From: Centroscyllium fabricii
Lineage: Eukaryota
Direction of reading: 5' to 3'
Length of the DNA stretch: 64,000 nt
Assembly: GCA_051313645.2 (NCBI GenBank)
Contig: JBNRSN020000038.1
Location: forward strand, 1,984,001 to 2,048,000
Position 1 is the stretch's first letter, and every line of letters starts with the position of its first letter. The translations under genes were made by a program, and so were the position numbers. Below, in pieces: positions 11,061 to 53,132 of this stretch. The notes beneath the pieces were generated by a model that was not told the origin of the DNA, searched no databases, and saw nothing but the letters and a program-made list of their open reading frames with translations.

Positions 11061-11086
11061 TAGGAATATTTTTTTTGATTTAAGTA

Positions 11087-12527: not shown

Positions 12528-12589
12528 AAACCATTTGATAATTAATCACTTGAGAGATTGCTAGCTAAAATCAAAGCACATGAAATTGG

Positions 12590-12803
12590 AAAGCAAAATA
12601 CTGCGGATGCTGGAAATCGGAAATAAAAACAGAAAATGTTGGAAATACTCAGCAGGTCAGGCAGCATCTGTGGAGAAAGAAACAGAGTTAACGTTTCAGG
12701 TCGATGACCCTGCGTCAGAACTGGGTCATCGACCTGAAACGTTAACTCTGTTTCTCTTTCCACAGATGCTGCCTGACCTGACTATTTCCAGCATTTTCTG
12801 TTT
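12590..12803. repeat. Penelope-derived palindromic repeat
   Basis: Arms aaacagaaaatg..cagcatctgtgga..gagttaacgtttcaggtcgatgaccc and its reverse complement around a short loop (~12711-12722). Confidence 0.75.
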
Positions 12804-13473
12804 ATACATCACATGAAATTGGAGGTAGGCTTGTGGCATGGTCTGGAAACTGGGGTAATAGTGAATTGAGAGTAAAGGGACGTTCTTTTAGATGCATAAT
12901 CTAAGTACTTTTTTTCTCGAATGGACCCCTACTCACTGTACATATTTCTTATTTTCTCTTCCAATGTGTAGTACCCAATATTTTTACACACTTTCTTAAC
13001 CCATCAGCTTAATTTGTCTTGACTGAGTATTTGTTTATATTGGTCAACTGGCAACAGAACTTGGTGTCATAAGTAAATACAATATGTAGGAGGATACTTG
13101 TAATGTTCACACATGCTGTGTGTGTGGCTGCCAAATAAGTTCCTATAGTGCTTAATTGTCTCCTAGACACACCTTTTTTATGTTTCTCATTGTCTGCTTT
13201 CTGTTGTCAAGCCAGTTTTCAATCCAGCCATTCATTCCATGTATCATTGTTGTCTTGCATTGAGTTCTGATTGCTAGATGCACCTAACTTGGAAATGTAG
13301 GAAACTTCAAAATACAAATATGACAATCCATGTCCACAATTCCCAGAATCCTGTCACTGGAGCAACTAAATTGCAAGGGTAATAAGTCTGACCACTGCCT
13401 TTCAGCCCTACTAAAAGAAACATGCTTGTAAATAACCACCTTGTGTACAACAAAAACTGGTTCTGTTATTGTA

Positions 13474-13994
13474 CAGGTTGTGCACCGAAAATCCGTGTCC
13501 CGAATAGCCGGCAGCTTCAATCTGCCGGCACAAATTGCCCCGACTGCACTGCGCATGCGCAAAATGGCAGCCGCCATCGTGGCTTCAGCGAATGATCTGC
13601 GCATGCGCCGAGCGCATGCGCAGATCATTCAAAACAGCTGCGGGTGTTTTGAATGATCTGCGCATGCGTCACCGGACGGTTAGCGCATGCGCAGATAATT
13701 CAATACGGCCGCCCGTTATTTTTGACAGCTGAGCCCCGTGACTGAGGCGGACAGTCACTAGGCAACAGCTGTCAGCCTGAGTCCCGCTCGGCGGCAGCAG
13801 CAACCCCAAAGGCGATGGAGAGGGACGGCGGACCCGGGCCCGATCTGCGCATGCGCGCACCAGCCAATCGCAATGATGCGCGCGGCCATTTTGAATGGTG
13901 CGCATGCGCAGTGTCCAAACTCGTTCTCCCGGTTTTTTCCATTTCCCGGCACGGGCCTGGTCCCGCCCGTGGCGGATTAATGGTGCACAACCTG
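13474..13994. mobile_element. Tigger/pogo-like MITE, copy 6
   Basis: TA-CAGGTTGTGCACC ... GGTGCACAACCTG-TA. Confidence 0.9.
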
Positions 13995-19088: not shown

Positions 19089-19453
19089 GCAGAGACCTTG
19101 GTGTCCATATACACAAATCATTAAATGTGGCAGGGCAAGTTGACAAGGTGGTTAAAAAGCATATGGGTTACTTGGGTTACTTGGAGGAATAGAATATAAA
19201 AGCAAATAGATCATGCTAGAACTTTATAAATCACTGGTTAGACCTCAGCTGGAGTATTGTGGACAATTCTGGGCAGCACACTTCAGGAAAGATGTAAAGG
19301 CCTTAGAAAGGGTACAGAGGAGGTTTACCAGGGATGAAGGACTTCAGTTATGAGGAGAGGTTGGAAAAGCTAGGACTGTTCTCCTTGGAACAGAGAAGGT
19401 TAAGAGGTGACCTAATAGAGGTTTTCAAGATGGTGTGAGGTTTTGATAGAGTA

Positions 19454-19878
19454 CAGGTTGAGCACTGTTAATCCGTTACCCGAAAAACCAGCAACTTCGA
19501 ACGTCCGACAATAATTTCCCCGACTGCCCTATGCATGCGCAAAATGGCCACCGCGATCGATGCTTCGGTGAATTATCTGCGCATGCACCGCCGAACGGCA
19601 AGCGCATGCACACATCATTCACAATGGCCGAGCCAATCCCAAGCCGAGCCTCCCCGAGCCTGGCTGCTGCGAGCCTCCCCGAGCCTGGCCGCTGCGAGCC
19701 TCCCCGAGCCGGGTCTCCCCGAACGATAAGCGTGTGCGCAGACCGCTCAAAATAGCCGCCGGCCTTTCGCGGTGGCCATTTTGAATGGTCTGCGCTCGCC
19801 AAAGCTTCAATCGTTCGGGATTTTCACTTTCCTGGCACGGGCCTGGTCCCGCCCGTGCCGGATTAACTGCTCAGCCTG
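19454..19878. mobile_element. Tigger/pogo-like MITE, copy 7 (inserted in CR1)
   Basis: TA-CAGGTTGAGCACTGTTAATC ... GATTAACTGCTCAGCCTG-TA. Confidence 0.85.
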
Positions 19879-20803
19879 TAGTTAGAGAAAAACTTCCCTC
19901 TGGCGAGTGGGTCAATAGGCCATAGATTTAAAATCATTGGCAAAAGATCTAGAGGGGAGATGAGGAGAATTATTTTCACCAGAGTTGTCGGGGTCCTGAA
20001 AAGGTGGTGGAAGCTGATAACATAATTTTAAAAGGGAGCTGGACAGGTACTTGAGGATGAGCAACTTACAGGGTTACGGATAAAAAGTGCAGATGTGAGG
20101 CTAAGCTCTTTCAAAGAGCCAGAACAGGCACGACCAGCCGAATGGCCTCCTCCTGTGCTGTAAGTTTCTATGAATTTGTTAACCAGTATTAAATGATCAA
20201 ATATAATTTTACAGTTGCGTTGTGCCTGATACTGCCAAATTATTGCGCAATGACAGCAGTTCACTTCATTTGAGTATGAGGGAGACCTGCATTGTTGGAG
20301 CATCTTTCAGATGAGACTTTAAAACCATTTGCCTGTTCAGGTGGATGTAAAATGTATGTTTTTTTGGAAGCCGAGTAGGAACAGGGAGACCTCTGGGTCT
20401 TGGCCAACATGCCTCAGATTGTCTAGTCATTCATCTCTTCACAGTTTCACTTGGATCGTGAACTGTTTGACCATGAAGGGCATCACAGCCAAGCCTCGTT
20501 CTATCTCCAGGTGGTGCTCTTGGCTCTGCATTTTCCAGCAGGAGCCAGTCGAGCTACTGCGAATTATGGGTGACTTCTCTCTAACCCAGGGACACATTGA
20601 CCCATTGTTAAATATTTGTATTTGTGTATATATAATACAATTTTGGTGATGTACTAGTGAACTATAAAGTGTTGAATACTTGGCATATTGTCCTCTGGAT
20701 TTGAGCATACAACTATGATGATGTGGCTGTAATGGGCTTACTTGATTCTCATTTTCAGAATAATTTGCCTGAGAATTGTGCATGGTTCTACTAAATAGTA
20801 ATA

Positions 20804-21519
20804 CAGGTTGAGCACCGTTAATCCGTGTCCCGAATACCCGGCAGCTTCAGTCTGCCGGCACAAATTGCCCCGGCTGCACTGCGCATGCGCAAAATGGCAG
20901 CCCCCATCGTGGCTTCAGCGAATGATCTGCGCATGCGCCGAGCGCATGCGCAGATCATTCAAAACAGCTGCGGGTGTTTTGAATGATCTGCGCATGCGTC
21001 ACCGGACGGTTAGCGCATGCGCAGATAATTCAATACGGCCGCCCGTTATTTTCTCGACAGCTGAGCCCCGTGACTGAGGCGGACAGTCACTAGGCAACAG
21101 CTGTCAGCCTGAGTCCCGCTCGGCGGCAGCAGCAACCCCAAAGGCGATAATGCGGAGGTGCCGGTGTTGGACTGGGGTGGACAAATGCAAAAAGTCTCAC
21201 AACACCAGGTTTAAAGTCCAACGTTTTATTTTAAATCACAAGCTTTCGGAGCTCCGAAAGCTTGTGATTTAAAATAAAACGTTGGACTTTAAACCTGGTG
21301 TTGTGTGACTTTTTGCATTTGTCCAAAGGCGATGGAGGGGGACGGCGGACCCGGGCCCGATCTGCGCATGCGCGCGCCAGCGAATCGCAATGCTGCGCGC
21401 ATGCGCGCAGCCATTTTGACTGGCGCGCATGCGCAGTGTCCAAACTCGTTCTCCCGGTTTTTTCCATTTCCCGGCACGGGCCTGGTCCCGCCCGTGCCCG
21501 ATTAACGGTGCTCAACCTG
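20804..21519. mobile_element. Tigger/pogo-like MITE, copy 8, with nested Penelope palindrome
   Basis: Perfect TIRs and TA TSD; nearly identical to copy 6 except for the insertion. Confidence 0.9.
21149..21322. mobile_element. Penelope-derived inverted-repeat insertion
   Basis: Near-perfect palindrome centred on ttcggagctccgaa (~21252); CCAAAGGCGAT duplicated at 21138-21148 and 21323-21333. Confidence 0.8.
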
Positions 21520-23620
21520 TAGTGTTAATGCATAAGCTCCAGTTTATAAAATGTGTTGGTTTATGTTTACAGCATCATTAAAAATATCACTTCGTGTGGT
21601 GTGTGTTTTTGCAGTGTAAGTGTGCTCAATGTTCAGTGTGGCTCTGACTACTTGGATTAGTGCAAAAGCGCTGGTGTATTAAGGTTACTAAATTTAAGAT
21701 TGCTAAATTAATGTTGAAAGTACTTCATAGCTTGCCCAAACTACCACACTACCTTTGCTGAGCTTTGGTAGTAAGTTGCAGGGCAATACAATCACAAATT
21801 TGATGTGTAACATTTTTGTGACTGGTAGACTGCTGGTGTGAAAATGGTGCTGTAAACCAAAGTGGTTTAGACGCATAATATGTGTCACTCCAAAAATGCG
21901 CGGTATTTAAAATGTTGGTGCCAAGTCTGACCTGGCTATTCAGCCTTCAACATACTCGGCGTGTTGTTTTAGAGGGACATCTGTTGACAAAACTTAAAAA
22001 TGAAGAGCGCTTTTAAAAACTTTTGAAATTAAGGTGGTTTTGTAGGCGTTGATAACTGTAACACTCCGGTTTTGAGCAGGTTAACCACAGGCCTTTTCAA
22101 CTGTCGCAAATTAAAAAAGGCATGTTGATGTACATTATGCTGTATCAGCATTTGTCTTTCTAGAAATTATATTTCTTGTATTGCTTTACCCAATTATGTG
22201 TTTTACTGCCTGAAAAGTATTCACTTCACATGAAGCCTTATGTAAAATTAATAGTTCTTATATTAAAATGGTGGGAATTAAATATGAACATACTTCGTTA
22301 AATATATTTCGAAGTGCGTAGTGATTGCATTCTGCAGCTCAGATGCATGGGTGCATTAAGGCTTGCAGAATTGATGAAGCTAGTGTTTTCATACCTTAAA
22401 TCAAATCCTGTGCTTCCAACCACAGCAGTGTGAAAACTAGCCAGGTTAATCACTTGCCGAATGTTTCCCACAGATCAACACCCTCCCTCTGTGCACTGAG
22501 AAGTTTAATTGAATACTGATGATTGGCAGAGATTAGGGGCTGGATTTTGACACTGGGGTGGGCTGGGGTTGTGTAATCCGCATTTCGTGTTAGCTACCCG
22601 ATTCTACATCGATGTGGGAAAATGATGCTATTTTAACTTAATTGACCAATTGAGTTCCAACGTGTGGGAACCCATGGCCAATGAGTTTTTCCAGTCTGAA
22701 AGTTACCCCCGATGATGTCATCATTGCTGCTGCATTTAAGGTCTGCAACAAGCCTTGCTTCTTCTGCAGACTGCCAACCTTTTGACCTTTGCAGTGAGAG
22801 GCACCTGCAGGAAGAATGGCCAGCCAGAGACCCAGGTCTGAACCCCACTTCGATAACGTTGCCCTGCAGGCTTTAGCAGAGGGAGCAAGTGCACATAAAG
22901 AGGTGCTCTTCCCTTCTTCAGGGAGGAAGAAGCCTCCCCAGCAAACCAAGGCTGTGCGGATCCAGGTGGCAGAGGAGATCAACTCTTTGTCAGTAACCTG
23001 CAGAACCTGGATTCAGTGCAGGAAGAGATTTCATGACCTTCTGCGCACTGGAAAAGTGAGAATTTCCCATCACCCTCAATCTGATCCCCATTGCCTCTCC
23101 TCACCACTCAGCTTTTGGAATCTCTTCTTCCACATCCCACTTGACACTGACACCCACTTGACACTGACATCCATGCACCCTTATCCATTCCCTCGCTCTC
23201 TATGGTCACATACACCTAACTATCTGACTATGCAGCCCTCACACTCCCTATCACTGTGATGCTATGAAAGCAACTTGCAACACACAGGGAGGGCCCTTGG
23301 TCTTGCCACCTCACTCCATATTTGTCGTCTCCTAAGCATCTATGCTATGGATTCTCTACACTCACTACTTCTTTCTCACTCAACCTCCACTTGTCTCCCT
23401 CACTGCAGGAAAAGAGAGCTCTCAATAAGAGATAAAGAGCGAGGACAGGAGGAGGGCTACCCTCAGTAGCCCACCTCACCCCCTGAGAGGAAGCGGTCCT
23501 GAAGATCGTGGGACTGGAGGACGATGCACAAGTGGGGGACAGACAGACTGGTGCATCACAGCAAGCTGGTGACAGAATAGTTTTCCATCTCTCTCATTGA
23601 CATTGCATGAGTCGCTGATA

Positions 23621-26600
23621 ATCATAGAATCATAGAATCATAGAAATTTTACAGTGCGGATAAGGGCCATTCGGCCCATCCAGTCCGCACCGGCCCAGGA
23701 AACTCCTCGCTATACTAACCCCATTTGCCCGCACCTGGCCCATAACCCTGTATGTTATGGTCCTTCATGTGCTGGTCCAAATATTTTTTAAATGTTGCGA
23801 TGGTTTCTGTTTCCACCACCCTTACAGGCAGGGAGTTCCAGACTTCCACCACCCTCTGGGTAAAGAAATTTCTCCTTACCTCCCCCCTAAACCTCCCTCC
23901 CCTAATCTTGAATCTATGTCCCCTAGTACTTGACTCTCCCACCAATGGAAACAATGCCCCTTTATCTACCCTATCGTGTCCTCTCATGATCTTGTAGACC
24001 TCAATCATGTCACCCCTCCACCTTCTCTTCTCCAGGGCAAACAACCCCAGCCTGTCCAGCCTCTCTTCGTAGCATAAGTCCCCCAGACCAGGTATCATCC
24101 TGGTAAACCTTCTCTGCACCCTTTCCAGGGCAACCACGTCCTTCCTGAAGTGCGGTGACCAGAACTGCACACAGTACTCCAGCTGGGGTCTCACCAGTGT
24201 ATTATACAAGTTTAACATTACCTCCCTACTTTTGTATACTATGCCCTGGTTAATAAAGGCCAGAATTCCGTATGCCTTCTTAACCACCTTGTTAACGTGT
24301 CCAGCAACCTTCAGGGAGCTGTGCACCTGTACCCCTAGGTCCCTCTGTTCCTCGGTCCTATTTAACGTTTTGTTGTTCATGGTATATTCCCTTACCCCAT
24401 TTGGTCTACCGAATTGAATGACCTCGCATTTCTCTGGGTTGAACTCCATTTGCCATTTTTCTGCCCAATTAACCATTAGATCTATATCCTCCTGAAGCCC
24501 CTTACTGTCCTCATCGTTGTTTACCACCCTTCCGATTTTCGTATCATCAGCGAATTTGCTGATCATACCCCCTACTCCCATATCCAAATCGTTGATGTAT
24601 ACTAGAAACAGTAAGGGTCCCAAAACCGATCCCTGGGGGACACCACTGGTTACTGGTTTCCAGTCACAGAAGCAGCCCTCTACCATTACCCTCTGTCTCC
24701 TATCCCCTAGCCAATTTTCGATCCACTGTGCCAAGTTGCCCTGAATCCCGTGCGCTCTAACCTTTGTTATTAGTCTCCTATGTGGGACTTTATCAAAAGC
24801 TTTGCTAAAGTCCATATACACTACGTCCACAGTACTCCCTTCATCCACCCTCTTTGTTACCTCCTCAAAGAATTCCAACAGGTTAGTCAGGCACGACTTA
24901 CCTTTGACGAAGCCATGCTGACTGTCCCTTATGAGACCCTGTTTGTCCAAATGCGAGCTGATTTTGTCCCTCAGAATTTTTTCCATTACTTTCCCTACTA
25001 CAGATGTAAGACTGATTGGCCTATAGTTACCCGGTTTGTCCCTACTACCCTTTTTAAACAGGGGTACTACATTAGCCGTTCTCCAGTCCTCAGGTACATC
25101 CCCTGACGCGAGAGAGGTCCTGAAGATTTGAGACAGGGGGCCCGCAAGCTCTTCCCTGGCCTCGAACAGCAGCCTGGGGAACATTGCGTCCGGCCCTGGT
25201 GATTTGTCCACCTTTAAGCCTCCCAAGATTTCTAAAACTTCTTCCCTTGTAGTGGTAATATCCTTGATTACCCCCCCTACACTCTGTCCGATTTCGATGT
25301 CGGTATCGTCCCTCTCTTTTGTGAATACTGAAGAGAAGAATTCATTTAGTACCTCCCCCACCTCCTCAGGCTCGACGCACAGCTTTCCGCTATCGTCCTT
25401 AATGGGCCCCACTCTTTCCCTCGTGATCCTTTTGTTTTTTATATAACCATAAAAAGCCTTAGGGTTTTCCTTGATTTTACTGGCCATTGTAATCTCATGA
25501 CCTCTCTTGGCTTTTCTTATCTCCTTCTTTAAATCACCCCTATATTTCTTATACTCCCCTAGTGCCTCCTCGGTTTTTAGCCGTTTATATTCATTGAAAG
25601 CCCCCCTTTTTTTCTTCATTAATTTACATATATCCCTAGACATCCAAGGTTCCCTTTGTTTGCCTCCCCCACCCTTAATTTTTGCAGGAACATGTTCCTC
25701 CTGTATCTTCCCGACTTCCCTTCTGAAGGCCTCCCACTGCTCTGATGCAGATCTTCCTCTGAGAAGATGGCCCCAGTCTACTGCGGCTAAATCGTTCCTA
25801 ATTTTATTGAAATCCGCCTTCCCCCAGTTTAGTACTTTTACCCCTGGTCCATTTTTATCTTTCTCCATTACAATTTTGAAACTAACTGAATTGTGGTCGC
25901 TATCCCCGAAGTGCTCCCCCACTGTTACCTCCTCAATCTGACCACCCTCGTTCCCAAGTATTAGGTCTAGTACCGCCCCCCCCCTTGTAGGTGACCCAAC
26001 ATATTGTTTCAAAAAATTTTCCTGGCTGCATTGTAAAAATGCTGAACCTTCCGTGCCCCTCACACTTTGATTTTCCCAGTTGATATTGGGGAAATTGAAG
26101 TCCCCTAATATTGTTACTTTATTATTTTCACTTATCTTCGTGATTTGTTCACATATCTTATCCTCTACCTCCCCTTTACTGTTTGGTGGTCTATAATATA
26201 CTCCCAGTAAGGTGCCCCCCCCCCCTTTTTATTTTTTACCTCCACCCATAGTGCCTCGTTTGAGGATTCGTCCATTAGGTCGACCCGCCTAATGGCTGTG
26301 ATTGAATCCTTAATCAGTATCGCTACCCCCCCTCCCCTTTTTCCCTCGTCTCTGTCCCGCCTGAAAATTCTATACCCCGGAATGTTTAGCTGCCATTCTT
26401 GCCCCTCTTTTAGCCACGTCTCCGTGATAGCTACTATATCATATTCCCATGAGTCAACCAATACCTTTAACTCATCCACTTTGTTAGTCAGACTCCTTGC
26501 GTTAAAGTATATGCCTTTCATTCTCTGTCCTAACACTACCTTGTTTTGCTGTCTAGTCTGCTTTCCTTTATTAGGTTGTGTTCCCCTATCCATTATACCT

Positions 26601-28256: not shown

Positions 28257-28779
28257 AAGTGGGGACTCCTCTCCAAGCACTCACACCTCCATGCCACTGC
28301 AGATCCCTCGGTCCGAACCCCACCAGAGCCCACACCCAACTGAGATTGGCGTCTCAACTCCTGCACAGGAGCAGCAGACTGTTGGCGAGCCCTTCACAGG
28401 TTCGCAACCCCAGAGGACGCCCGCCAAAGGTGTCGAGACAGGAGCAGCAAGAAACTGAGTAAGGGGCCTCCACATCTGCTGACGCCACAGGGGCCACGTA
28501 GGAGCACGCGTAAGAGAAAGATACTGCACAAATAGCCACAAGGGTAGTCACTTTGATGTTTTATATTAAAAAGCCATCAAATGATTACTGTAAATACAAA
28601 ATCTGATGGCTAATGCTGTAGTTCTGGTGTGTGTCATTTTGCGATTGGGACTTCCTCATTGAGGGCTTAGGATTACTTGCAATTGTCAGTATGGTGGTCA
28701 AATTACAAGGAATCCGCTGGTTCTTAGCCATTGTCGATGCTTAGGTAAGAAGCTGCGAGGCAAAAGTGCTTGATTGGCT

Positions 28780-29840
28780 AGGCTAAGCAAATCTGGCCAA
28801 GATGAGTGCATTCCTTGCATCCTGGGCAGCAATGTTCTCGTGTACTGCAGCCACTGGTTGATGGGCCTCTGCAAGATGTTTGTTTTCGCTCTCCTCCGCC
28901 ACCGCTGCCGGGCTTCACCTGATCTATCCAAGCATCTGAAGGGAATCTTCAGCAAACCGATGATTTGCTCAATTATGGCTCTGGTGGACATGTGGCTGCA
29001 GTTGTAGCTCTCCTCAGCTTCGTTGGATGGGCTCCTCAACGGCATCATTAGCCACGTCTTCATGGGATAGCCCTTGTCTCCAAGTAGCCATCCGTTAAGT
29101 TGGTCTGATGGACTGAATAGCGGAGGCACACTAGACTGGCGCAGTATGAAGGAGTCATGGCAACTGCCAGGGTACTTGGTACAAACATGCAAAATTTTCT
29201 TTTTGTGGTTCCACACCAGCTGAACGATAAGCGAGTGGAAGCCCCTGTCGTTGACAAAAATACCTGGATTGCGATGGGATGCCTTAAGGGCCACGTGTGC
29301 AGTCAACGATGCCCTGCACCCTTGGAAAGCTTGCCAGATTAGCTAATCCAGCCGCACACGCCGTGACACTTGCTTGATCCTTGGTGAAATGGATGTGATT
29401 GTGCACGAGGGCATCGGTTACCTGCGTGATGCAAGTGTGTGCGGCTTCCTGGGAGATGCCGCTGATGTCTGCTACTGATCCCCGGAATGAGCCTGAGGCA
29501 AAATAGTTGAGTGCGGTGGTGACTTTGATGGCCACTGGTAAGGGTTATCCACCTGGTCCTCTGGTCTGCAGGTCTTGTTGCAGCATTGCGCAGATGTCAC
29601 CAACTACCTCTCGCCAAAGTCGGAGCTGCCTTTGGCACTGCTGCTCAGACATGTTGAGGTAGCTGACGCTGTGTCTGTAGACCCTGTTTGGGGGTTATCT
29701 CCTGCACCAACAGGCTTCCATGCGCTGGCCCCTTCTGGCCTGTGCAGCTTCAGGTGGGTGAGCAGCAACTTGGCGCTCCTGTTGGTGCTGCTGCTGTTCC
29801 TGGTTCTGCTGCTGCCATGGCTGGTCTTCATCCTCATCTA
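28780..29840 (-). pseudogene. Harbinger (HARBI1-like) DDE transposase
   Basis: [55 protein letters not shown]; frameshifted. Confidence 0.9.
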
Positions 29841-32720: not shown

Positions 32721-33191
32721 TTGCCTGTAAAAAGTTGGCTTGCAACAATCTGGGAAAAAAGCTTCTCTCTCTTTCTGTAGCATTTATGTTGCTGTAGGAA
32801 GTGTTCCTGCCACTGGAAACGTGCCCCTTTAGGTTGGGTCTTGGAGCCTCTTTGCCTTATTTACTTTACACTGCTACTGTAGCTGGGGCTACTGGCAGTG
32901 TAGTGAAGGGGATTCATTTCATATTGAGAAATGTTTTGGTTGGGGGCAGGGGGTGGAAATACCTATCTAGTAGTCATGAGAAAATCAGCCTCAGTTTAAG
33001 TTTCGATTCTTGGGTTTTATATAATTTTTATAATGTGTTAAATACCATTAACTCTAAGGCTTAGAGTTACAGATATAAATTCAAGATGAATAAATTCCTC
33101 AAGATTTAAAACCTCTCTGAATTTTTTTGCTAAAGTATTCACTAAGGAATTCATAGAAAATGTTTGATTTGTCTAAAACAGTTATGATTCC

Positions 33192-36100
33192 TGTGGTGAA
33201 CCACTGTTTGTACATAGTTGCCTCTTGCTTGTGTTTATGCATGCCTGAAGCTGACTCCGCCCCCAGCCTACCTGATATAGGCCCAGACTCTGGGAGCTTG
33301 GCCCACTACAAGGAGTTGCCAGTCAGCCTAAGGATGTTCCAGGGTTCTTAGTGAATAAAAGCCTCAGTTGTATTCTCAACTTCGTCTCGAGTATAATTGA
33401 TCGTGCATCAATTTTATTCACTAAAAGTTTCGAGATGGAAGAACTCCTGATGCCATCCACCCTGGAACTCGACCCGAGCGCACCTGAGGCGCCAAGCGGC
33501 TTCTCCCACTGGCTAACTTGTTTCGAGTGATTCCTGACGGCCTCCGCCAACACTGTCCAGACGGACGCCCACAAACTCTCGCTCCTGCAGTCTCGGGTCC
33601 ATCACTGAGTGTTCCAACTCATCAAGGGAGTGACCTCCTACGCATCTGCGATGGCCCTCCTCGCGGAACAGTACGAGCGCCCGACCAACACGGTTTTCGC
33701 CAGGCACCTCCTGCTGACCCACAAACAACGGCCCGGTGAGAGTTTCGCTAGTTTTGTGCGGGCACTGACAGAGCTCAGCAGAGCCTGCAACTGCGAAACG
33801 GCCTCGGCAGATGAGCACAGGGAGCTGCTGGTCTGGGACGCCATTGTCGCGGGCGTACAATCTGATTACACCCGGAAGAGACTGCTGGAACTGAGCAAAC
33901 TGTCCCTGAAGAAGGCCACAGACATCGGACTCTCACTCGAGGGGGCCCATACTCCGATGGGCCCCCTCGAGGGTCCTAGGCCCAACCATCTTCAGCTGTT
34001 TCATCAATGACCTTCCCTCCATCATAAGGTCAGAAGTGGGGATGTTCGCTGATGATTGCACACTGTTCAGCACCATTCGAGACTCGTCAGATACTGACGC
34101 AGTCCGTGTCCATATGCAGCAAGACCCGGACAACATTCAGACTTGGGCTGACAAGTGGCAAGTAACATTCGCACCACACAAGTGCCAGGCAATGACCATC
34201 TCCAACAAGCGAGACTCTAACCATCTCCCCTTGACATTCAATGGCATTATCATCGCTGAATCCCCCACTATCAACATCCTGGGGGTTACCATTGATCGGA
34301 AACTGAACTGGACCAGCCATATAAATACTGTGGCTACAAGAGTAGGCCAGAGGCTGGGAATTCTGCGGCGAGTGTCTCACCTCCTGACTCCCCAAAGTCT
34401 TTCCACCATCTACAAGGCACAAGTCAGGAGTGTAATGGAATACTCTCCACTTGCCTGGATGAGTGCAGCTCCAACAACACTCAAGAAGCTCGACACCATT
34501 CAGGATAAAGGAGGCCGCTTGATTGGCACGCCATCCATCACCTTCAACATTCACTCCCTCCACCACCGGCGCACTGTGGCTGCAGTGTGTACCATCTACA
34601 AGATGCACTGCAGCAACTCGCCAAAGCTCCTTCAACAGCACCTTCCAAACCCGCGACCTCTACCACTAGAAGGACAAGGGCAGCAGACGCATGGGAACAG
34701 CACCACCTACAAGTTCCCCTCCAAGCCACACACCATCCTGACTTGGACCTGTATCGCCGCTCCTTCACTGTTGCTGGGCCAAAATCCTGGAACTCCCTTC
34801 CTAACAACATTGTGGGTGTACCTACACCATACGGACTGCAGCGGTTCAAGAAGGCGGCTCACCACCATCTTCTCAAGGGCAATTAGGGATGGGCACTAAA
34901 TGCAGGCCTAGCCAGCCAGCGACGCCCACATCCCATCAATGAATAATATATATTTTTTTAAATGGAGGCGTACGCACCCAGCCACATGGCCGCCCCGTGG
35001 ACCTTGCGGGAGCCGCCAGCTTGGAACACGCTAGGCCCGACTCCCTACGCCGCGCCACCCTCGCCTCGCCTCACCCCGCGAACGGCCTGACCACTGCGGC
35101 AGTGTCCCGGAGCCAGAAGTGCTATTTCTGTGGCCAAGCAAAGCACTCCAGACAGTGCTGTCCGGCGAAGGACGCTATGTGCACGAGTTGCCAGAAGAAG
35201 GGACACTACGCGAGCGTCTGCAAGCCGTCCCCCAGGCCCAGCAGCGCCGCGTGCGAACTGACCTCGCGGCCATCTTGGACACCCTCCCCACCATGTGCGA
35301 CTCGTGGGCGCCGCCATCTTGTCCGGCGGACCGACCTGGCTCCCCTGCTAGCTGCGATGCGCCACCACTCTCGGTACTGGCCTCCATTACCTTGAACCAG
35401 TACCAGCCCCACCACCTCACGAAGTCCATGATGGATATTAAGGTAAACGGCTGCGCCATGAACTGCCTGTTTGACTCAGGCAGCACGGCAAGTTTTATCC
35501 ACCCCGACACGGTGTTCCGCCACTCGCTCTCCACTCGGCCCATGCACCAGCGCATCTCCCTCGCTTCCAAATCCCAGACCGCGGATGTCAGCGGCTACTG
35601 CGTGGTAACCCTGTCGGTGAAAGGCGCAGTGTACAAGGATTTCAAACTCCAAGTCCTGCCCAATCTCTGCGCTGCCGTCCTCCTGTGGTTAGACTTCCAA
35701 ACCCACCTTAACAGCATTACGATGGCGTACGGGGCCCCCCCCCACTGTCTGCAGCCAGCAGCCCTTAAACCGCGCACTGTCTGCAGCCTCTCGACTCTGA
35801 AGGTCTCTCCTCCCCCACTGCTCGCTAACCTCACCTCAGACTGTTAACCCATAGCCACTAAGAGCAGGAGATACAGTGCTGGGGACAGGGCTTTCATCAA
35901 GTCCGAGGTACAGCGGCTCCTGAAGGAGGGGGTGATTGAGGCTAGCACCAGCCCCTGGAGGGCCCAGGTAGTCGTCGTTAAGACCGGTGAAAAGCACCGA
36001 TTGGTCATCGACTACAGCCAGACCATCAACCGCTTTACGCAGTTGGACGCGTACCCCCTTCCCCGCATATCTGACGTGGTCAATCAGATTGCGCAGTATA

Positions 36101-37520
36101 AGGTGTTCTCCACCATTGACCTGAAATCAGCATATCACCAACTCCCCATCTGCCCCACGGACCGCCGATATACTGTCTTTGAGGCTAACGGCCGCCTCTA
36201 CCACTTTCTCAGGGTTCCCTTCGGGGTCACCAATGGTGTCTCGGTTTTCCAATGGAAGATGGACCGTATGGTTGACCGGCACGGGCTGCTGACCACGTTC
36301 CCGTACCTAGACAACGTCCCCATCTCCGGCCATGACCTGCAGGACCATGACGCCAATCTTGAAAAATTCCTTCGCACGGCCCAACTCCTCAACATCACCT
36401 ATAACAAGGAGAAATGCATGTTCCGCACAACCCGCCTTGCTATTCTTGGCTGTGTCGTGGAAAACGGGGTCATCGGCCCCGACCCAGACCACATGCGCCC
36501 CCTCATGGAACTCCCCCTCCCCCATTGCCAAAAGGCCCTGAGAAGATGCCTGGGCTTCTTTTCCTACTACGCCCAGTGGGTCCCTAACTTTGTGGACAAG
36601 GCCTGCCCGCTCCTTAAGTCTACCTCCTTCCCCCTAACGACAGAGGCCCATCTGGCCTTCAGCCGCATCAAAGGGGACATCGCTAAGCCCACCATGGACG
36701 CGGTGGACGAATCCGCCCCGTTTCAGGTGGAGAGCAATGCGTCCGACTTTGCCCTGGCCGCCACCCTTAACCATGCGGGCAGACCCGTGGCCGCCTTCTC
36801 ACGAACCCGCCAAGGCCCCGAGACTAGATACTCCTCTGTCGAGAAGGAGGCCCAGGCCATAGTGGAAGCTGTGCGCCACTGGAGGCATTACCTGGCCGGT
36901 CAACGGTTTACCCTGCTCACCGACCAGCGCTCAATTGCTTTTATGTTTAGCAACAAGCAGCGGGGTAAAATCAAAAACGACAAGATATTGAGGTGGAGAA
37001 TTGAACTCTCCACCTACAACTACGACATCTTGTATTGGCCCGGGAGGTTCAGCAAGCCCCCAGACGTGCTATCCCGGGGAGAATGCGCCAGCGCGCAGGT
37101 GGATCGACTGTAGTCCCTCCACAATGACCTCTGCCCCAAGGGCCCGACCGCCGACTGCCCCCGTATGGACGAAGACATGGGACCTGCACCGCAGCCGGAG
37201 CTACGATGATCGCAGAGGCGTACCAGACCTCCTGAAAGACTCATGTACACTTGACCTTGTCTCACTTCACCCCGCTGGACTCATTTCTAAAGAAGGGGTG
37301 AATATGTTTGTACATAGTTGCCCCTTGCCTGTGTGTCTACATGCCTGGGCATGCCTGAAGCTGACTCCACCCCCAGCCTACCTGATATGGGCCCAGACTC
37401 TGGGAGCCTGGCCCACTACAAGGAGTTGCCAGTCAGCCTAAGGATGTTCCAGGGTGCTTAGTGAATAAAAGCCTCAGTTGTATTCTCAACTTCGTCACGA
37501 GTATAATTGATCGTGCATCA
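33192..37520 (+). mobile_element. Gypsy LTR retrotransposon 1 (degenerate, integrase deleted)
   Basis: LTRs 33192-33410 and ~37303-37520, 5-bp TSD ATTCC; gag from 33435 with two Zn knuckles; protease LFDSGS; RT/RNase H 35932-37113; PPT agaaggggtgaa. Confidence 0.92.
33972..34960 (+). mobile_element. LINE family B (CR1/L2-group RT) 3' fragment nested in gag
   Basis: FADDCT, WADKWQVTFAP, KAQVRSVMEYS; 3' end gcaattagggatgggc. Confidence 0.85.
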
Positions 37521-39435
37521 ATTCCTTTATATGCAGAAATGTTTTTCATTGTAGGGAGACCCAACCTATTTTCCATATGCTAATTTGGAAGGAGTTTCCA
37601 ATCAGTCCAACTGTATCAGCATAACTTTATGGAATGGGGTGTTGCAGAGAAACAGGGAAACGAGAGTGTTTATATAAATTAACTCATGCATTTATTTAAT
37701 TGTACAAATCATAATCAATTACATGATTAAAATGGGATATATACCCTGTGAGATTTAATTGTGCTATGTTAATAATTCAGTTTCATCCTTTACCTAAATA
37801 ATCAGCTTTTTATTTGAAATTAAGTTGAGTTTAATTTGTGCGTAAAACTTCAGTAGAAGCTGAAGTGCTACTTCATCAAATTGTTTCTTTTAAATAGCTT
37901 GATTTACATATCTAATTTTTAAAACAATTGTTTTTAATTGATAAAGTTGTTTGGCTGCCCTTGTTTTACTACAGTAATTGCATAGATCAATGTAAGCAAG
38001 TATTTTTGCTTCACAAAGTAGCTTGCGCAAATTTTGGGTTTTGATATTCTTGAGTTCAGAATTACCAGTCACTCCCGTAAGTGGACCTCGTGTCCCCCTG
38101 TGGTTTGGACTGCTCCCTTTTTCTGCGCAATATCTAGTTAAATGCTAATGACGCTGGGAACATGAGGGAACCCTTACTCCATACACCGGCTACTGAAATA
38201 GAACTAGTGCTACCACGTGAATTATTTTCTTTTTTGTGAAAGGTGGACTGAATAACCACTCTCCAGAGACGAGGTACGGGCTTTGGACCAGTCGCTCGTT
38301 TATTGACCTGAAGTGTTCCAATGAACAGTTGATAAAATGAGAGCGCATATTCTCCTCCACTCCTCGGGATATGTAACCAATTAGCGCCACTTGCTTTTGC
38401 TCTAAAAGTTGTCTTTTATGGTAGAAGATTTCTCTACCTTTAACCCTTCAAAGTTAAGCTGGTTCAGACTTTTAAAAATATAGACCGCCCTTTTCTGCTG
38501 GCCACAGAACCACAGACCTCTGTGACTGAGAGCGATACTCCTTAAGCCATACTCCTTAAGCCCATCAGTTAGGATACCCATCCACTGATCTGTGACTCTG
38601 AGGTTTCAGACTGGGGTCTGCTTGTAGAATGGTGGGTAGATAATATACCTTTCATGATTTTCCAATATTGAATGAAGATAATTTTATTGATGGGGCAAGA
38701 TGCTTATCAGTGAATTTGAGGATTCCAGTGACTGACCCCTAGGGAGTTACCCATTGTTGACAGATTCAGTAACTTCCATATAAGCAGCATCGATGCAACA
38801 TGTTTAACCATTTACCACTTCAGAACACCATTGTGGGCCTAAATGAACTTTTGGGCTCTGGGCCTGCTGGGTGGAATACTGAATGGAGTTAACCCCTTGC
38901 ATACTGAATCTAGCAATGCAATGATGTACAATCCAATGCAGACAACCCAAGCAAAAAAAAATCAATTTTGCCGCAGTTTTGTCACAATAGAATTTGGGTA
39001 CTTGTGTGCAAAACTTCTTGTATGTTAAGTTTAGATTTTTGTAAAGTGTTCTCCTTGTGCTACTTGTGTGCCTCCCCTGCACCTTAAACCGCTACATGAT
39101 TGAGCACTTGAAGGAAGATGATCTCTTGCCAATGCTCTATCTACATATTTTGGCTCATTCTTGCATTTATTTCCACTCTTCCTCTCGGGAAGTCTCCACT
39201 GTCTTTGAGGGTTTACTATTTGAGAAATCATGTAGAAACTCTGCAGGCCTAACAGTCCATGCAACAATACATTTGTTTGAAGCTTATTTGCCATTGAACA
39301 AGCAAATTTTTAAATAATGAAATTATATTTGATAATTTTCAGAACCTTTTGGAACAGGTTTTCATTTTGTTTGCATTGCTGCATTACCATATATGCGGCC
39401 TAGATGAACTGAAGAATTAATTGAAATCATACTCT

Positions 39436-42400
39436 TGTGGCGACACGCCCACCGGCAGCCACGAAACCGCGCTGGGAAGGCTGCAAAGCGGCCCCGCCCG
39501 TCGGAGGACGCACGGACTTCCCCGACGTGATGACGTCACCAGGTGGCCAGCCGGCAGTGACGTCCCCAGCGGCGGGACCTTTAAATACCTGAGCACCAGG
39601 TGGCTCAGTCTCTTTCTCCCTCTCTGGCCCTAGCTGTAACAAGTAGTTAATAAAAACTCTGCTTTTAACCCCTCTGTGTCCAGCGTGGTCCTTCAGCCTT
39701 GCAGGCCTCAACACTGGTGACCCCGATACCTGAGACGTTTCTCAGGTGAACAATGAAGCAGCCACTGCAGGACTGAGGGCCAAGCTGCCGCAGCCGAATC
39801 GCTACCACCATGCCAGCAGCAAACGACTCAGCACGCCAAGGCAGACGGGGCCAAGTTTACCTCCCGGTCACAACCATACCACAATTCTGGGAGCTCCGTC
39901 CAGCGGCTTGGTTTCGCAACACCGAGAACACCTTCCGCATCCATGGCGTGCACGCAGACGACCGCTACAGCCTGCTCTTCGCAGCCCTCGCACAGTCCAC
40001 CATCGACAGAATGTGGGACAGCATCGAGGAAGACACTTCTGCAGGCAGGTACGAATCGCTAAATGCCGCGCTGCTCGCAAAATTTACCCCAACCATTTTC
40101 GAGCGTGATTGCCAGGTCATTAACCTCCCCGACCTGGGAGATGCAGACCCCACCGACTTGTGGGCCCAGTTCGAGGCGCTCAATCGCGACTCAAGACACC
40201 CTTAAGCGCGCCCTCTACCTCCTTAAGCTGCCGCCCTCCATCAGACCGACACTGACGGTCTTGGAGCACCTCTCAAACAGGCAGCTAGCTCAGGAGGCAG
40301 ACAAGCTCATTAAGGCCGAGCGCACCCGCGCCACCATGCACCGCCACGCTGCCGCTCAACAAGAGCAGCACCAACCACAACCCCGGCCCCAACCCCAACT
40401 CAGAGCCGCGCGGACCCACAAAAAGCCACGCACCGCGGCAACCGGCTGGTGCTACTACCATACCAGGTTTGAGGCCAAAGCGCAGCGCTGCGTTCCGCCC
40501 TGCAACTTCAAACCCCAAACCTGCCCCAGCCCCACCATGTGCGTCGGCCGCTCCGGAGCGCTGCTCTTCGTTACAGACAGTGTCTCAGGCCTCCGTTTCC
40601 TCTGCGACACAGGCGCGCAGCACAGCATCGTGCCAGCCTCCCCCGCAGAATCCAAGCAGGGCACCCAAGGCCCACCACTCGAAGCCGCAAACGGCTCCGA
40701 GATACTCACGTTCGGTACCCGCCAGCTTACCATTAAACTAGCAGGCCACAGGTATACGTGGGACTTCATCACCGCGCAGGTTAACACGCCCCTACTCGGA
40801 GCCGACTTTCTGTGCGCCCACGGGCTCCTTGTCGATGTTACCCGGCGCCGCCTGGTCGACATCCAAATCATGTCGACCATTCCGTGCTCCACAGCCCCAG
40901 CACACCAGACCCACGCGGCAGCTCACTGCCGGGCCCGCAACTCCGACACGTACGCCACGCTGCTCGCCGAGTTCCCCACCCTAACCAACCCCACCTTCAC
41001 AGCCCGCTCCGCCAAGCACGGCGTAGAGCACCACATCACCACCACAGGCCCCCCGGTCCACGCCCACGCACGCAGGCTGGACCCGGCCAAGCTAGAGATC
41101 GCTCGAGCCGAGTTCCACATCATGGAACAGCTCGGCATCATCCGCCGCTCCAGCAGCCCCTGGGCCTCCCCCCTCCACATTGCCCCCAAACCCGATGGCG
41201 GCTGGCGCCCCTGCGGAGACTACCGCCGCCTCAACAACGCCACCACCCCGGATAGGTACCCAGTCCCCCACATCCAGGATTTTTCCGTGAGGCTAGCCGG
41301 CTGCACGGTCTTTTCAAAGATCGACCTGGTACGGGGCTACCACCAAGTTCCAGTGCACCCGGCGGATGTCCCTAAGACAGCCGTCATCACCCCATTCGGC
41401 CTATTTGAATTTCTCCGGATGCCCTTCGGACTCAAAAACGCGGCCCAGGCTTTCCAGCGCCTCATGGACTCAGTCCTCCGGGACCTCCAGTTCACATTCG
41501 TCTATCTCGACGACATCCTGGTGGCCAGCGCCTCCCCCCGGGAACACCTCATCCACCTCAGAACCCTTTTTAAACGCCTGGCCGACCACGGCCTCATATT
41601 AAGCCCCTCCAAGTGCCGATTCGGCCTCGAGGCTATTGACTTCCTCGGCCACCACATCTCCCACACCGGGGCCATACCCCTGCCCTCCAAGGTGCAGGCG
41701 GTCCAGGAATTCCCCCGCCCGCACTCCATCAAGGGGCTGCAGGAATTCCTTGGAATGGTTAATTTTTACAACCGTTTCATCCCCGGCGCAGCCGCCCTCA
41801 TGGCCCCCCTCTACCAGGCCACCCACGGGCAATCCAACAAGACCGCGGTCGAGTGGACGGCCGAAGCCGCCACCGCCTTCACCGCAACCAAAACGGCCCT
41901 TGCCAAAGCCACCCTCCTCAGCCACCCCAGGCCCAACGCCAGAGTAGCCCTCACCACCGACGCCTCCGACCACGCTGTCGGAGCAGTCTTCGAGCAGTGG
42001 TCGGGCGACTCATGGCAACCACTGGCCTTTTTCAGCCGCCGCCTCCGGCCCCCAGAGGTCAAGTACAGCGCCTTCGATAGGGAGCTACTCGCTCTCTACC
42101 TCGCAGTGCGCCACTTCCGCTTCCTTTTAGAGGGCCGCCACTTTACAGCATTTGTGGACCACAAACCATTAGTCTCCGCAATGGCTAAGCTCTCCGAACC
42201 CTGGTCAGCCAGGCAGCAGCGCCAGCTCGCGGCCGTGTCCGAGTTCACGACCGACATCCAGCACATTGCCGGCCGCGACAACGTGGTCGCCGACTGCCTC
42301 TCACGACCCGCCATTCACAAGCCCAACCCCGACCACCCCGCGGGCCCTGCCATCAGCAGCGCAGGCACAACCGGCACCCAAACCGCCGACCACCCCCCAA

Positions 42401-44248
42401 CCCCAGCCACCAACCGCGCCTGCGCACACTGCTGCGCATTCCCAACCACCAACACTGTCCAGACCGCGGTCGACTACGTCAAAATGGCGGCCGACCAACT
42501 CAGCGACCCCGACCTCCTCGACCCCACCAACAAACTTCCCGGACTACTCTTGGCCACCGTAGCACACGGACCCACAGCCACGGCGGTCCGCTGCGACGTC
42601 ACCCTGCCCCAACCCAGGCCCGTGGTGCCCCCCGCGTGGAGGCAGCACATCTTCCAGACCCTCCACGGCCTCTCCCACCCCGGCGTCCGCGCATCCACCA
42701 AGCTCATCTCTGCGCGATTCGTTTGGCGCGGCCTAAAACAAGATGTCCACGCCTGGACCACCTCGTGCAATGCCTGCCAGCGAGCCAAGGTGCACAAACA
42801 CATCAAAGCACCGCTCCAACCAATCGCCATCCCAGCTAGACGCTTCAGCCACGTGCACATCGACCTGGTTGGACCACTACCCCCATCACGTGGACACTCG
42901 TACCTCCTCACAATGGTCGACCGCACCACCCGCTGGCCTGAAGCGGTCCCCCTCAACACGACCACCACCGCCGAACTGGCCAGGGCCTTCATCGCCACCT
43001 GGGTCGCCCGCTTCGGCGTCCCCAACGACATTACTTCAGACAGGGGCCCCCAATTCACTTCAACTCTATGGTCAACCATCGCTCACGACCTTGGGGTAAC
43101 CCTGCACCGAACCACTGCCTACCACCCGCAAGCCAACGGCCTCTGCGAACGGTTCCACCGAACTTTTAAAACATCCCTGCGGGCCAGCCTCCAGGACGCA
43201 ACCTGGACGGACCGCCTGCCCTGGGTAATGCTCGGCCTCCGCACAGCGGCCAAAGAAGATCTACACGCCTCGGCAGCCGAACTCGTTTACGGCCAACCAC
43301 TAACCGTACCAGGCGAGTTCGTCGCAGAAACAAACGAACCCTGGTCGGCCGAGCGCTGCCTCAGGGAATTCAACAACCAGGCAGCAGAATTCAAACCACT
43401 TCCGGTGGCCCGCCACGGTCAACCGGCGACACGCGTCCCCAACACCATTCAGGACGCCAAGTACGTGTTTGTCCGCCATGACTCTCACAAACCACCGCTG
43501 CAGGCACCGTACGACGGGCCATTCAGAGTGCTTCGGGCGGGACCCAAGACTTTTGACATTCAAATGGGCAACAGAACTGAGACCGTATCCATTGACCGGC
43601 TCAAACCAGCACACGTAATGGCGGGCGAGACAACAGTCCCCGCACAACCACCTAAACGCGGCCGCCCTACCGCACCAAAACCCGCCCACACTCCCACACA
43701 GACCAACAAGCAACACATCACACGTGCCGGCCGTACCATCAGGCCACCTAAGCGCCTCGCCTGAGGCGACACGGGCAGAGCATTGACGGCCCGCCACAAC
43801 ACCATCTTTCGAACCACGGAACAGCACACAACACCTGCCGGCCACAACACCAGGCCATTGCGGCAAACTGTCGGACATTCTGTGTGTAATCGAAATGTGT
43901 GTCTGCTCTCTTTTTTGTCTCCCTCCTCTAGGAAACTACACTTCCCCTCGCGGATTCTGGGGGGGAGCTGTGTGGCGACACGCCCACCGGCAGCCACGAA
44001 ACCGCGCTGGGAAGGCTGCAAAGCGGCCCCGCCCGTCGGAGGACGCACGGACTTCCCCGACGTGATGACGTCACCAGGTGGCCAGCCGGCAGTGACGTCC
44101 CCAGCGGCGGGACCTTTAAATACCTGAGCACCAGGTGGCTCAGTCTCTTTCTCCCTCTCTGGCCCTAGCTGTAACAAGTAGTTAATAAAAACTCTGCTTT
44201 TAACCCCTCTGTGTCCAGCGTGGTCCTTCAGCCTTGCAGGCCTCAACA
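39436..44248 (+). mobile_element. CsRn1-clade-like Gypsy LTR retrotransposon 2, very recent
   Basis: 278-bp TG..CA LTRs at 39436-39713 and 43971-44248, no difference seen by eye; TSD CTCT; tRNA-Trp PBS TGGTGACCCCGA; PPT; CHCC knuckle CYYH..C...C. Confidence 0.95.
39810..43764 (+). CDS. Gag-Pol polyprotein of Gypsy 2 (one +1 frame break near 40190-40205)
   Basis: Gag N-terminus 39810-40205; ORF 40063-43764 with CHCC, protease LCDTGA, RT YLDD, RNase H TDAS..ELLA, integrase HHCC/DDE and GPY/F. Confidence 0.9.
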
Positions 44249-48618: not shown

Positions 48619-49092
48619 CAGGTCCGACACCGATAATCTGGCACTGGCGGAACCAGGCCGGTGCTGGATTAGTGAAAAATCCGAGCGATTGAAGCTTCGG
48701 CGAGCGCATGCGCTGACCATTCAAAATGGCCGCCGCGAAGGCCGGCGGCCATGTTGAATGGTCTGCACATGCGCTTGCCGAAGCATCAATCGTTCGGGGA
48801 GAGGCCCGGGCATGCGCAGCCAAGCGTGGCGGCCATTTTGCGCATGCACAGCCAAGTGCGACGACCATTTTGCGCATGCGCAGACCAGTCGGGGAGAGGC
48901 CCGGACATGCGCAGCCAAGCGCGACGGCCATTTTGCGCATGCACAGACAAGTCTGGTAGTCGGGGAGAGGCCTGGGCATGCGCAGCCAAGCGCGGCGGCC
49001 ATTTTGCGCATGTGCAGACTAGTTGTCCGGATTCATTCCGGACGACTGAAGTTTGCGGATTACCGGTGTCCGGATTAACGGTGCCGGACCTG
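48619..49092. mobile_element. Tigger/pogo-like MITE, copy 10 (CAGGTCCG TIR subfamily)
   Basis: TA-CAGGTCCGACACCG ... CGGTGCCGGACCTG-TA; internal repeats of gcatgcgcagccaagcg..ggccattttgcgcatg. Confidence 0.85.
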
Positions 49093-51149: not shown

Positions 51150-53132
51150 CCAAACATGACTTCCTGATAGCCAGACATCTGAAGACTGTACAGTCGAGCG
51201 CAGATGCAGCAGCAGAATTGTATTCCACCACAATCTTTAACCTCATTGCCTGGCATATCCCTCACTCTACCATTACCATCACGCCAGGGGACCAACCCTG
51301 GTTCAATGAGTGTAGAAGAGCATGGCAGGAGCAGCATCAGGCGTACCTAAAAATGAAGTGCCAACCTGGTTAAGCTATAACACAGCACTACATGCATGCT
51401 AAACAATAGAAACAGCATACTATAGACAAAGCTAAGTGATCCCACAATCAACGAATCAGATCAAAGCTCTGCAGTCCTGCCACACCATCTTCAGCCCAAA
51501 GTGCCGAGTGGATGATCCATCTTGGCCTCCACCATCACAGAAGCCAGTCTTCAGCCAATTCGATTCACTCCATGTGATATCAAGAAACTGCTGAGTACAA
51601 TGGATGCAGCAAAGACTGTGGGCCCTGACAACATCCCGGCTGTAGTGCTGAAAACTTGTGCTCTAGAACTAGCTGCGCCTCTAGCCAAGCTGTTCCAGTG
51701 CAGCTACAAGACTGACATCTACCTGACAATGTGGAAAACTACCTTGGTATGTCCTGTCCACAAAAAACAGGACAAATTTAATCCGGCCAATTACCGCCCC
51801 ATCAGTCTACAAAGTGATGGAAGGCGTCGTCGACAGTGCTCTCAAGCGGCACTTGCCAATAACCTGCGCAACGATGCTCAGTGGGTTCTGTTATGACCAC
51901 TCTTCTCCAGGCCTCATTACAGACTTGGTCCAAACATGGATAAAGGAGCTGAATTCCAGAGGTGAGGTGAGATTGACTGCCCTTGACATCAAGGCAGCAT
52001 TTGACAGTCAAGGAGCCCCAGTAAAATTGAAGTCAATGGGAATCTGGGGGAAAACTTTCCACTGGCTAGAGTCATACCTAGCACAAAGGAAGATGGCTGT
52101 GGTTGTTGGAGGTCAATCATCTCGACCCCAGTGCATCCTCAGTTTCTCAGGGTAGTGTTCTAGGTCCAAACATCTATCATCATCTGCTGCATCAATGACT
52201 TTCCCTCCATCATAAGGTCAGAAATGGGGATGTTCGCTGATGACTGCAGTGTTCAGTGCCATTCACTACTCCTCAGATAATGAAGCAGTCCATGCCTGCA
52301 TGCAACAAGACCTGGATGACGTTCAGGCTTGGGCAGTTGAGTGGCAAGCCACATTAACGCCACACAAGTGCCAGGCAATGACTATCCAACAAACTAGTCT
52401 AGCCACTGCCCCTTAACATTCAGTGGCCTTGATATTGCTGAATCCCATCAACATCCTGGGGGGTGGGGGGGGGTGGTGTTCACCATTGACCAGAAACTTA
52501 ACTGGACTAGCCACATAAGTACTGTGGCTGCAAGAGCAGGTCAGAGGCTGGGTATTCTGCGGCGAGTGTCTCACCTCCTGACTCCCCAAAGCCTTTCCAC
52601 CATCTACAAGGCACAAGTCAGGAGTGTGATGGGCTACCCTCCACTTGCCTGGATGAGTGCAGCTCCAACAGTCAAGAGGCTCGACACCATCCAAGAGAAA
52701 GCAGCCCATTGATTACCACCCCATCCACCACCTTAAACATTTTCTCTCTCTCCACCATTGTTGCACCATGTCTGTCTTGTGTACCATCCACAAGATACAC
52801 TGCAGCATCTCGCCAAGGCTTCTTCGTCAGCACCCCCTAAACCCGCGGCCTTTACCACCGAGAAGGACAAGGACAGCAGGCACATGGGAACACCATCACC
52901 TCCAAGTTACATGCCATCTTGACTTGGAAATATATAGCTGTTCCATCATCGTCACTGGGTCAATATCCTGGAACTCCCTCCGTAACAGCACTGTGGGAGT
53001 ACCTTCACCACACGGACTGCAGCGGTTCAAGAAGGCAGCTCACCACCACCTTTTCGAGGACAATTGGAGATGGGCAATAAATGATGGCCTTGCCAGCGAC
53101 TCCCACATCCCATGAACGAATATTTAAAAAAA
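51150..53132 (+). mobile_element. LINE family B, degenerate
   Basis: GPDNIP, NYRPISL, LDIKAAFD, FADD; same 3' end as 34900; A-tail. Confidence 0.85.

Follow-up and report, generated by a model that had tools for sequence, protein, structure and literature searches.

Tf1 of fission yeast reportedly primes reverse transcription by annealing the first ~11 nt of its own RNA onto the PBS (primer-binding site). It belongs to the Tf1/sushi group, together with Tf2, Tj1, Maggy, skippy, Tcn1 and sushi-ichi, and the accessible part of PMC10085805 describes these elements as chromoviruses that self-prime through a pretzel of three duplexes. According to the available text of PMC6317226, self-priming is reported for Tf1/sushi elements of both fungi and vertebrates, and there are predictions of it for Tcn1 and for the TAR lineage of Copia elements, the rule behind such predictions being an LTR complement of at least 10 nt that starts 0-5 nt after the LTR. 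For Tf1/sushi, self-priming in vertebrates has thus been published (PMC6317226 and PMC10085805, in the portions available), and the trait has so far been treated as a mark of these chromoviruses, with one predicted Copia case.

Here we describe a Ty3/Gypsy element in a window of 64,000 nucleotides, the whole stretch of DNA that was analysed, and judge from its sequence and that of its relatives that it likely primes reverse transcription from its own RNA and not from a tRNA, with a probability of roughly 0.8. The copy in the window is dead. It is a decayed element on the forward strand, flanked by a 5-bp target-site duplication, ATTCC, at 33187-33191 and 37521-37525, and as this duplication is found on both sides, the element extends from 33192 to 37520 and its 5' LTR ends at 33410. 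The 5' LTR (33192-33410, 219 bp, TG...CA) is identical to the 3' LTR at 200/219 positions over the part aligned by BLAST; the 3' LTR (37303-37520), whose left end is altered, is preceded by a polypurine tract (37289-37302), and comparable tracts ending in GGTGAA are present in four of the related loci described below (L002, L004, L005 and L007). Between the LTRs we find the 5' part of gag (33435-33969), which starts with an ATG at 33435, contains stop codons and shows 38% identity to the gag of L002; a 5'-truncated non-LTR (LINE) insertion within gag that is foreign to the element (about 33970-34945, with other copies at 52154-53122 and 58209-58896); the 3' part of gag with a zinc-knuckle-like region and the aspartic protease, with frame changes (34946-35847); the reverse transcriptase with a YLDN motif and RNase H (35848-37113); and a remnant of the integrase region (37114-37288), where similarity to L002 ends near 37149. 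With the L002 integrase as a query no match was obtained in the window element, most of this domain being deleted. The element thus has the two TG...CA LTRs, the target-site duplication and the polypurine tract of Ty3/Gypsy, with the reservation of the altered left end of the 3' LTR, and the domain order is gag followed by PR-RT-RH-IN, with the integrase after RNase H read in L001-L003 and deleted in the window copy. Among solved structures, its reverse transcriptase is closest to that of Ty3 (E=3.5e-45).

Within the 5' LTR, the segment 33348-33360 (TTAGTGAATAAAA), hereafter the arm, is the exact reverse complement over 13 nt of 33412-33424, the site, with 51 nt between the two. As the LTR ends at 33410, the spacer between the terminal CA and the site is exactly one base (33411), and we consider the site the equivalent of a PBS, with the arm as the candidate self-primer. 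An earlier note on this DNA had described such a complement in place of a TGG-starting PBS, and an arm that is present in both LTRs and holds a poly(A) signal. Both descriptions hold: none of 3000 dinucleotide shuffles of the LTR gave a complement of at least 13 nt (mean 4.7, maximum 10), and the arm, with its AATAAA hexamer at 33354-33359, recurs at 37458-37470. This second copy has no downstream partner, the longest such match after the 3' LTR being 5 nt. No TGG directly follows the 5' LTR, and the first one overlaps the gag ATG at 33435; ARAGORN detected no tRNA genes in the window, and Rfam gave no matches there.

A second, unrelated Gypsy element in the window (39436-44248, forward strand) serves as an internal control, as it carries a TGG-starting PBS that is also placed 1 nt after the CA. 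Its longest complement is 7 nt, and the flanks of five 3' LTRs reach 3-6 nt. Its LTRs are identical (280/280) and its pol is an open frame of 1233 codons, which marks it as a very young insertion; it is flanked by a 4-bp CTCT duplication, and we take it to be CsRn1-like. Other features of the window include LINE elements with endonuclease and reverse transcriptase on the minus strand (23715-26228, with an open frame of 837 codons, and 60397-63039), besides many fragments, a DDE_Tnp_4 transposase fragment (28701-29342, minus strand) and a Myb/SANT-like fragment (22798-23256, plus strand). The latter two form a pair that is presumably typical of Harbinger transposons, by which we do not imply that they belong to one element. 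Dispersed repeats that abound in GCGCATGCGC palindromes and contain internal inverted repeats lie at about 1300-2800, 10480-13990, 19450-21520 and 48738-48798 and are possibly non-autonomous DNA transposons. At about 12677-12755, within a repeat-like segment, a short loop separates the halves of a perfect 32-bp inverted repeat, and a GC-rich tandem array with a period of 76 bp is found at 3157-3911.

Relatives of the element were obtained by scanning a collection of prokaryotic genomes, which yielded ten loci (L001-L010). These are repeat-rich contigs with Gypsy elements inside bacterial MAG records, and we read them as animal contaminants. The plasmid collection contained three distant records and no clade member, and the phage collection none. 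Note that one entry filed as a Wolbachia plasmid is in fact a Gypsy retrotransposon from a different clade (L011, 1-5332); this outgroup element has no match of at least 10 nt at its LTR end. L001-L003 resemble whole elements in collapsed form, with gag and pol in one long frame in L002, and in L008 another Gypsy element with a TGG-starting PBS is nested in the reverse transcriptase of a clade member (2277-7896, minus strand). The junction between LTR and gag is kept in seven of the ten loci; not scorable were L006, which begins inside gag, L008, with no recognisable 5' junction, and L010, an RT fragment only. All seven junctions share one layout: the LTR arm stops with a poly(A)-type hexamer or 1 nt beyond it, and a sequence perfectly complementary to the arm follows 1 nt after the CA. 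The duplex measures 14 nt in L002, L004, L007 and L009, 13 nt in L001, 15 nt in L003 and 10 nt in the decayed copy L005, lengths that were matched by 0/3000 shuffles for L002, L003, L004, L007 and L009, by 1/3000 for L001 and by 7/3000 for L005. With the window element included, the spacer after the LTR-terminal CA is 1 nt in 8/8 elements and a TGG start is found at 0/8 post-LTR junctions, and all eight conform to the rule for predicted self-priming, with a complement of at least 10 nt located 0-5 nt after the 5' LTR and no tRNA PBS.

The end of the LTR was set independently by the LTR pair for the window element, L004, L005, L007 and L009, and in four of the five a 5-bp duplication fixes it as well. 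In L001-L003, collapsed contigs that contain a single LTR copy, the LTR ends were read from the polypurine tract and CA, and for L001 the end was taken from the CA adjoining the site, which is partly circular. A blind scan of 350,922 strand-bases for CA, one nucleotide and a complement of at least 11 nt recovered 7/8 junctions, with L005 missed since its duplex is below the cut-off, and the remaining matches were palindromic repeats and microsatellites. L004, L005 and L007 constitute one family with LTRs that are 91-97% identical, so that six families including that of the window are available, represented in the following by the window element, L004, L009, L001, L002 and L003. As the arm of L009 is close to that of L004 (12/13), the six families amount to fewer than six independent events.

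The complementarity of arm and site is real, conserved and covarying. Covariation had been proposed earlier as a check on the pairing, and it was found: in each of six families with differing sequences, the site is perfectly paired to the family's own LTR. When every family is represented by a single element, Watson-Crick pairs are present at 83/83 duplex positions, without any G-U pair, and the 13 positions common to all six families are paired in 78/78 cells. With 3'-end anchoring, 10/13 columns contain at least two types of pair, in part due to a 1-nt difference in register; with anchoring on the hexamer, 7/13 columns (-6 to +6) vary and no pair is broken. Each arm matches its own site at 13/13 positions and the sites of other families at 6-12/13, and as the hexamer switches among AATAAA, ATTAAA and AGTAAA its partner changes along. 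In a MAFFT alignment of five families, 7/12 pairs were changed on both sides, a result reached in 0/500 shuffles, although the shuffle ignores relatedness. Paired cells in this alignment amount to 88% versus 27-47% in slid controls, and fall short of full pairing because L003 is out of register. An eight-junction alignment misplaced L001, and pairs were therefore counted by coordinate anchoring and in the five-sequence alignment. The edges of the duplex are sharp: on the inner side the next base is mismatched in 6/6 families, and on the outer side, at position 16, a Watson-Crick pair is found in 0/6.

This covarying match in six families, in the register of a primer-binding site, supports the self-priming that the earlier note had inferred from the window alone. 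Transcription would start at the 5' end of the arm or slightly inside it (33348-33350), and the first 11-15 nt of the RNA would bend back and pair with the post-LTR site. Cleavage immediately 3' of the hexamer, probably by the RNase H of the element on the analogy of Tf1, would free a 3'-OH from which the reverse transcriptase would copy U5 and the rest of R before jumping to the 3' LTR. The homology for this jump would be provided by the 15-25 nt that remain between the cut and the poly(A) site, a role that we assign to the rest of R/U5 at 33361-33410. Plus-strand synthesis would then restore the binding site by copying the primer, a step reported for Tf1, where the primer is copied into the PBS strand at the cDNA end (PMC11042837, in its accessible part). 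Such copying would hold the arms strictly to Watson-Crick pairing. G-U pairs are absent from the primer duplex but present in 4/5 predicted neighbouring hairpins, which favours templated copying over selection for RNA shape alone. The hairpins are short and are predicted to start at the first base after the arm in 5/6 families (33361-33401 in the window, 386-399 in L002, 3761-3775 in L003, 6654-6669 in L004 and 3288-3299 in L001). At the predicted cut site, the primer duplex could be extended by their stacking, but they are weak, with calculated energies of -1.5 to -11.4 kcal/mol for the region.

The arm could also act as a primer without being the 5' end of the RNA, if transcription started upstream and the primer were excised or carried a 5' tail, or if the arm that anneals to the site came from the 3' LTR or a second RNA. 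We consider this unlikely. A TATA box 25-35 nt upstream of the arm is found in none of the six families, while TATA-like words occur at -41 to -72 in 4/6, none of them at -30, so that an earlier start could be envisaged. In each of the six arms the first base is a pyrimidine located 1-3 nt ahead of the first YA, a poor fit to a single A start; starts at these YA dinucleotides inside the arms would yield primers of 11-14 nt, but AT-rich DNA contains many dinucleotides of this kind. The start of the arm had been called initiator-like, and this likeness is weak, as TTAGTG agrees with four of the six letters of the TCAKTY consensus (PMC3601003, in the part available). Folding from the start of the LTR, in whole-LTR context, predicts the duplex equally well, with a probability of 0.91-0.99. 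In the window element only, 33336-33345 in U3 pairs with 33459-33468 and 33361-33370 with 33481-33490, over 10 nt each, and the first of these pairings would require a transcript that starts upstream of the arm. This U3 pairing is not seen in five relatives, where 63-285/300 shuffles were as good. The extra pairings between LTR and the start of gag comprised 24 tests, and a conserved pretzel of the Tf1 type, with the two additional duplexes flanking the PBS that Tf1 requires, was rejected, as the 3'-side duplex was matched by 15/300 shuffles in the window and by 41-229/300 in five relatives, and the 5'-side duplex was significant only in L001 (1/300). An upstream start is also at odds with the sharp outer edge of the duplex and its length of 13-15 nt in six families, as if the RNA ended there, and if the 3' copy were cut after AAUAAA, the R region that is needed for strand transfer would be lost.

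Priming from an arm at the 5' end of the RNA, the reading that we prefer, would place the poly(A) signal inside the duplex. In whole-LTR context the hexamer has a predicted unpaired probability of 0.00-0.06 at the 5' LTR, versus 0.44-0.80 for the 3' LTRs of five elements; when L001 is folded from the arm, the duplex probability is 0.70 and the hexamer is unpaired at 0.28. Since the partner is present only at the 5' end, the 5' AAUAAA is predicted to be hidden and the 3' copy to be open. Hiding the 5' signal would probably be a secondary benefit of the duplex. That it should be the sole function, with priming carried out by something else, is improbable. The predicted occlusion is specific to the 5' end, and in 6/6 families the arm reaches to the end of a poly(A)-type hexamer or 1 nt past it, as masking alone would have it, but neither the fixed 1-nt register to the LTR end nor the lack of G-U pairs is required for masking, and the partner is found at the only position where priming yields a correct LTR end. 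The gag ATG follows only 2-13 nt beyond the site, which leaves no room for another PBS. Note that a second AATAAA is located 15 nt downstream of the arm hexamer and outside the duplex in L004 (6663-6668), and likewise in L005 and L007; as it is not covered, masking may be incomplete or secondary in this family.

It is very improbable that a host tRNA fragment, comparable to the half-tRNA priming of some Copia lineages, or another small RNA acts as the primer, with the match to the LTR being incidental. Half-tRNA priming exists and does not need a TGG, but among plant elements such primers are given for Copia only (PMC6317226, available text), and the present sites differ among families at up to 7/13 positions while tracking their own LTR, which a conserved host RNA cannot do. 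Judged by the sequences, a single tRNA or tRNA fragment could hardly explain six diverging sites. A chance AT-rich inverted repeat, as might be suspected from an arm with 11/13 A or T and from inverted repeats of at least 11 nt after CA in unrelated palindromic repeats and microsatellites, is ruled out by the identical register and compensatory changes in 7/7 junction-bearing relatives, in addition to the 0/3000 shuffles.

The reverse transcriptase of the window element belongs to a lineage with a characteristic active-site motif. In a pattern search over whole proteins, among the best 120 of 1370 homologues, 75 contained a YxDN word and 29 a YxDD word, and YLDN in the window is a trait of the clade, not decay. 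An asparagine at this position raises a question on polymerase activity that is discussed for other elements in the accessible part of PMC554778. Among these best 120 of 1370, the closest named matches are from rays and sharks, with 65-78% identity, which points to a cartilaginous fish as the probable host, and further named matches are from cnidarians, a sea slug (mollusc), flatworms, nematodes, a spider, a cockroach, a shrimp and hagfish. The lineage, earlier taken to be a vertebrate one, is thus not specific to vertebrates but metazoan. Its description as lacking a chromodomain was borne out on the relatives, the integrase of the window copy being mostly deleted: a chromodomain was detected in 0/6 integrase-bearing clade proteins at E up to 1, and PF00385 was found in 0/20 long clade proteins (P0121-P0140).

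Trees were calculated on RT/RNase H, with FastTree for 89 rows and with IQ-TREE in quick mode for 35 of those, leaving out L009, for which only an RT fragment matched. The window element, L001-L005 and L007 fall into one clade with a support of 100, a long stem and a YLDD sister group. This clade stands apart from three chromodomain-bearing rows and is not nested among them (P0194 and P0199 are chromodomain-bearing proteins). An AU test on a topology joining the clade, its sister group and the chromodomain-bearing rows gave p=0.363, a value that does not reject the arrangement and was obtained with no named Tf1/sushi sequence among the rows. The RT phylogeny that had been proposed earlier places the element in a clade of its own, and is compatible with a sister relation of this clade to the chromodomain-bearing rows. 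Together with its sister group, the clade joins K02A2.6-like rows at weak support (83). An origin of self-priming independent from the chromoviruses is plausible. More tentatively, and at somewhat less than even odds, we suggest that an animal-wide YxDN Gypsy clade evolved self-priming independently of Tf1/sushi with a primer whose 3' end is formed by the poly(A) signal, such that one duplex of 13-15 bp would initiate reverse transcription and at the same time keep the 5' poly(A) site silent, without a pretzel.

The clade may already carry a MolGy or Repbase name. The PBS is not mentioned in the main texts of PMC6238403 and PMC8556966 on metazoan Gypsy clades, and the motifs of the clade were not found in the readable supplements of either. 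In the literature, Repbase and most subscription journals aside, we found no account of self-priming in a non-chromodomain animal Gypsy clade and no description of a primer that ends at a poly(A) signal, and a search of the literature for YLDN with retrotransposon returned nothing. What appears to be new is the lineage and the ending of the primer at the poly(A) hexamer; self-priming itself is known. A non-chromodomain clade with a host range that extends from cnidarians up to hagfish and rays would add another large lineage that does without tRNA primers and thereby presumably escapes silencing by tRNA fragments, and it bears on whether hairpin priming is ancestral or was invented repeatedly, a question raised in the available part of PMC3601003. 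The arrangement would also be a compact answer to how an LTR avoids polyadenylation at its 5' copy. Its layout is a simple sequence rule with exact predictions for the 5' and 3' ends of the RNA, and tools that require a TGG-starting PBS would miss or misjudge such elements.

In comparison to known systems, the clade resembles Tf1/sushi as a Ty3/Gypsy lineage with no tRNA PBS and a post-LTR site complementary to an internal segment of the LTR. The complement is 11 nt in Tf1 (PMC7175516, accessible text) versus 13-15 nt here, and unlike Tf1/sushi the present clade has no chromodomain, no conserved flanking duplexes of a pretzel and a mostly YxDN reverse transcriptase. Its primer ends at the poly(A) hexamer, a feature that we have not seen described for Tf1 in the portions of the sources available. 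The mechanism has been demonstrated by experiment only for Tf1, while the present clade is known from sequence; we infer that the element works like Tf1 and do not class it as a member of Tf1/sushi. Host range and the lack of a chromodomain are shared with the metazoan non-chromovirus Gypsy clades (the Mag lineage, MolGy1-16, Cigr-1 and CsRN1). For the TAR lineage of plant Ty1/copia elements (Houba, Osr-1), self-priming is predicted by the same rule (PMC6317226, available text), but these belong to the Copia superfamily, reside in plants and have a different domain order, and their self-priming implies that the trait arose more than once. The fungal GalEa Copia elements and the bivalve biv-TRIMs also have no canonical PBS and instead an inverted repeat at its position (PMC5445492 and PMC6934838, in their accessible parts). 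In these, both arms are internal and about 9-10 bp long, with no partner in the LTR, whereas in the present clade one arm is located in the LTR and covaries with the site.
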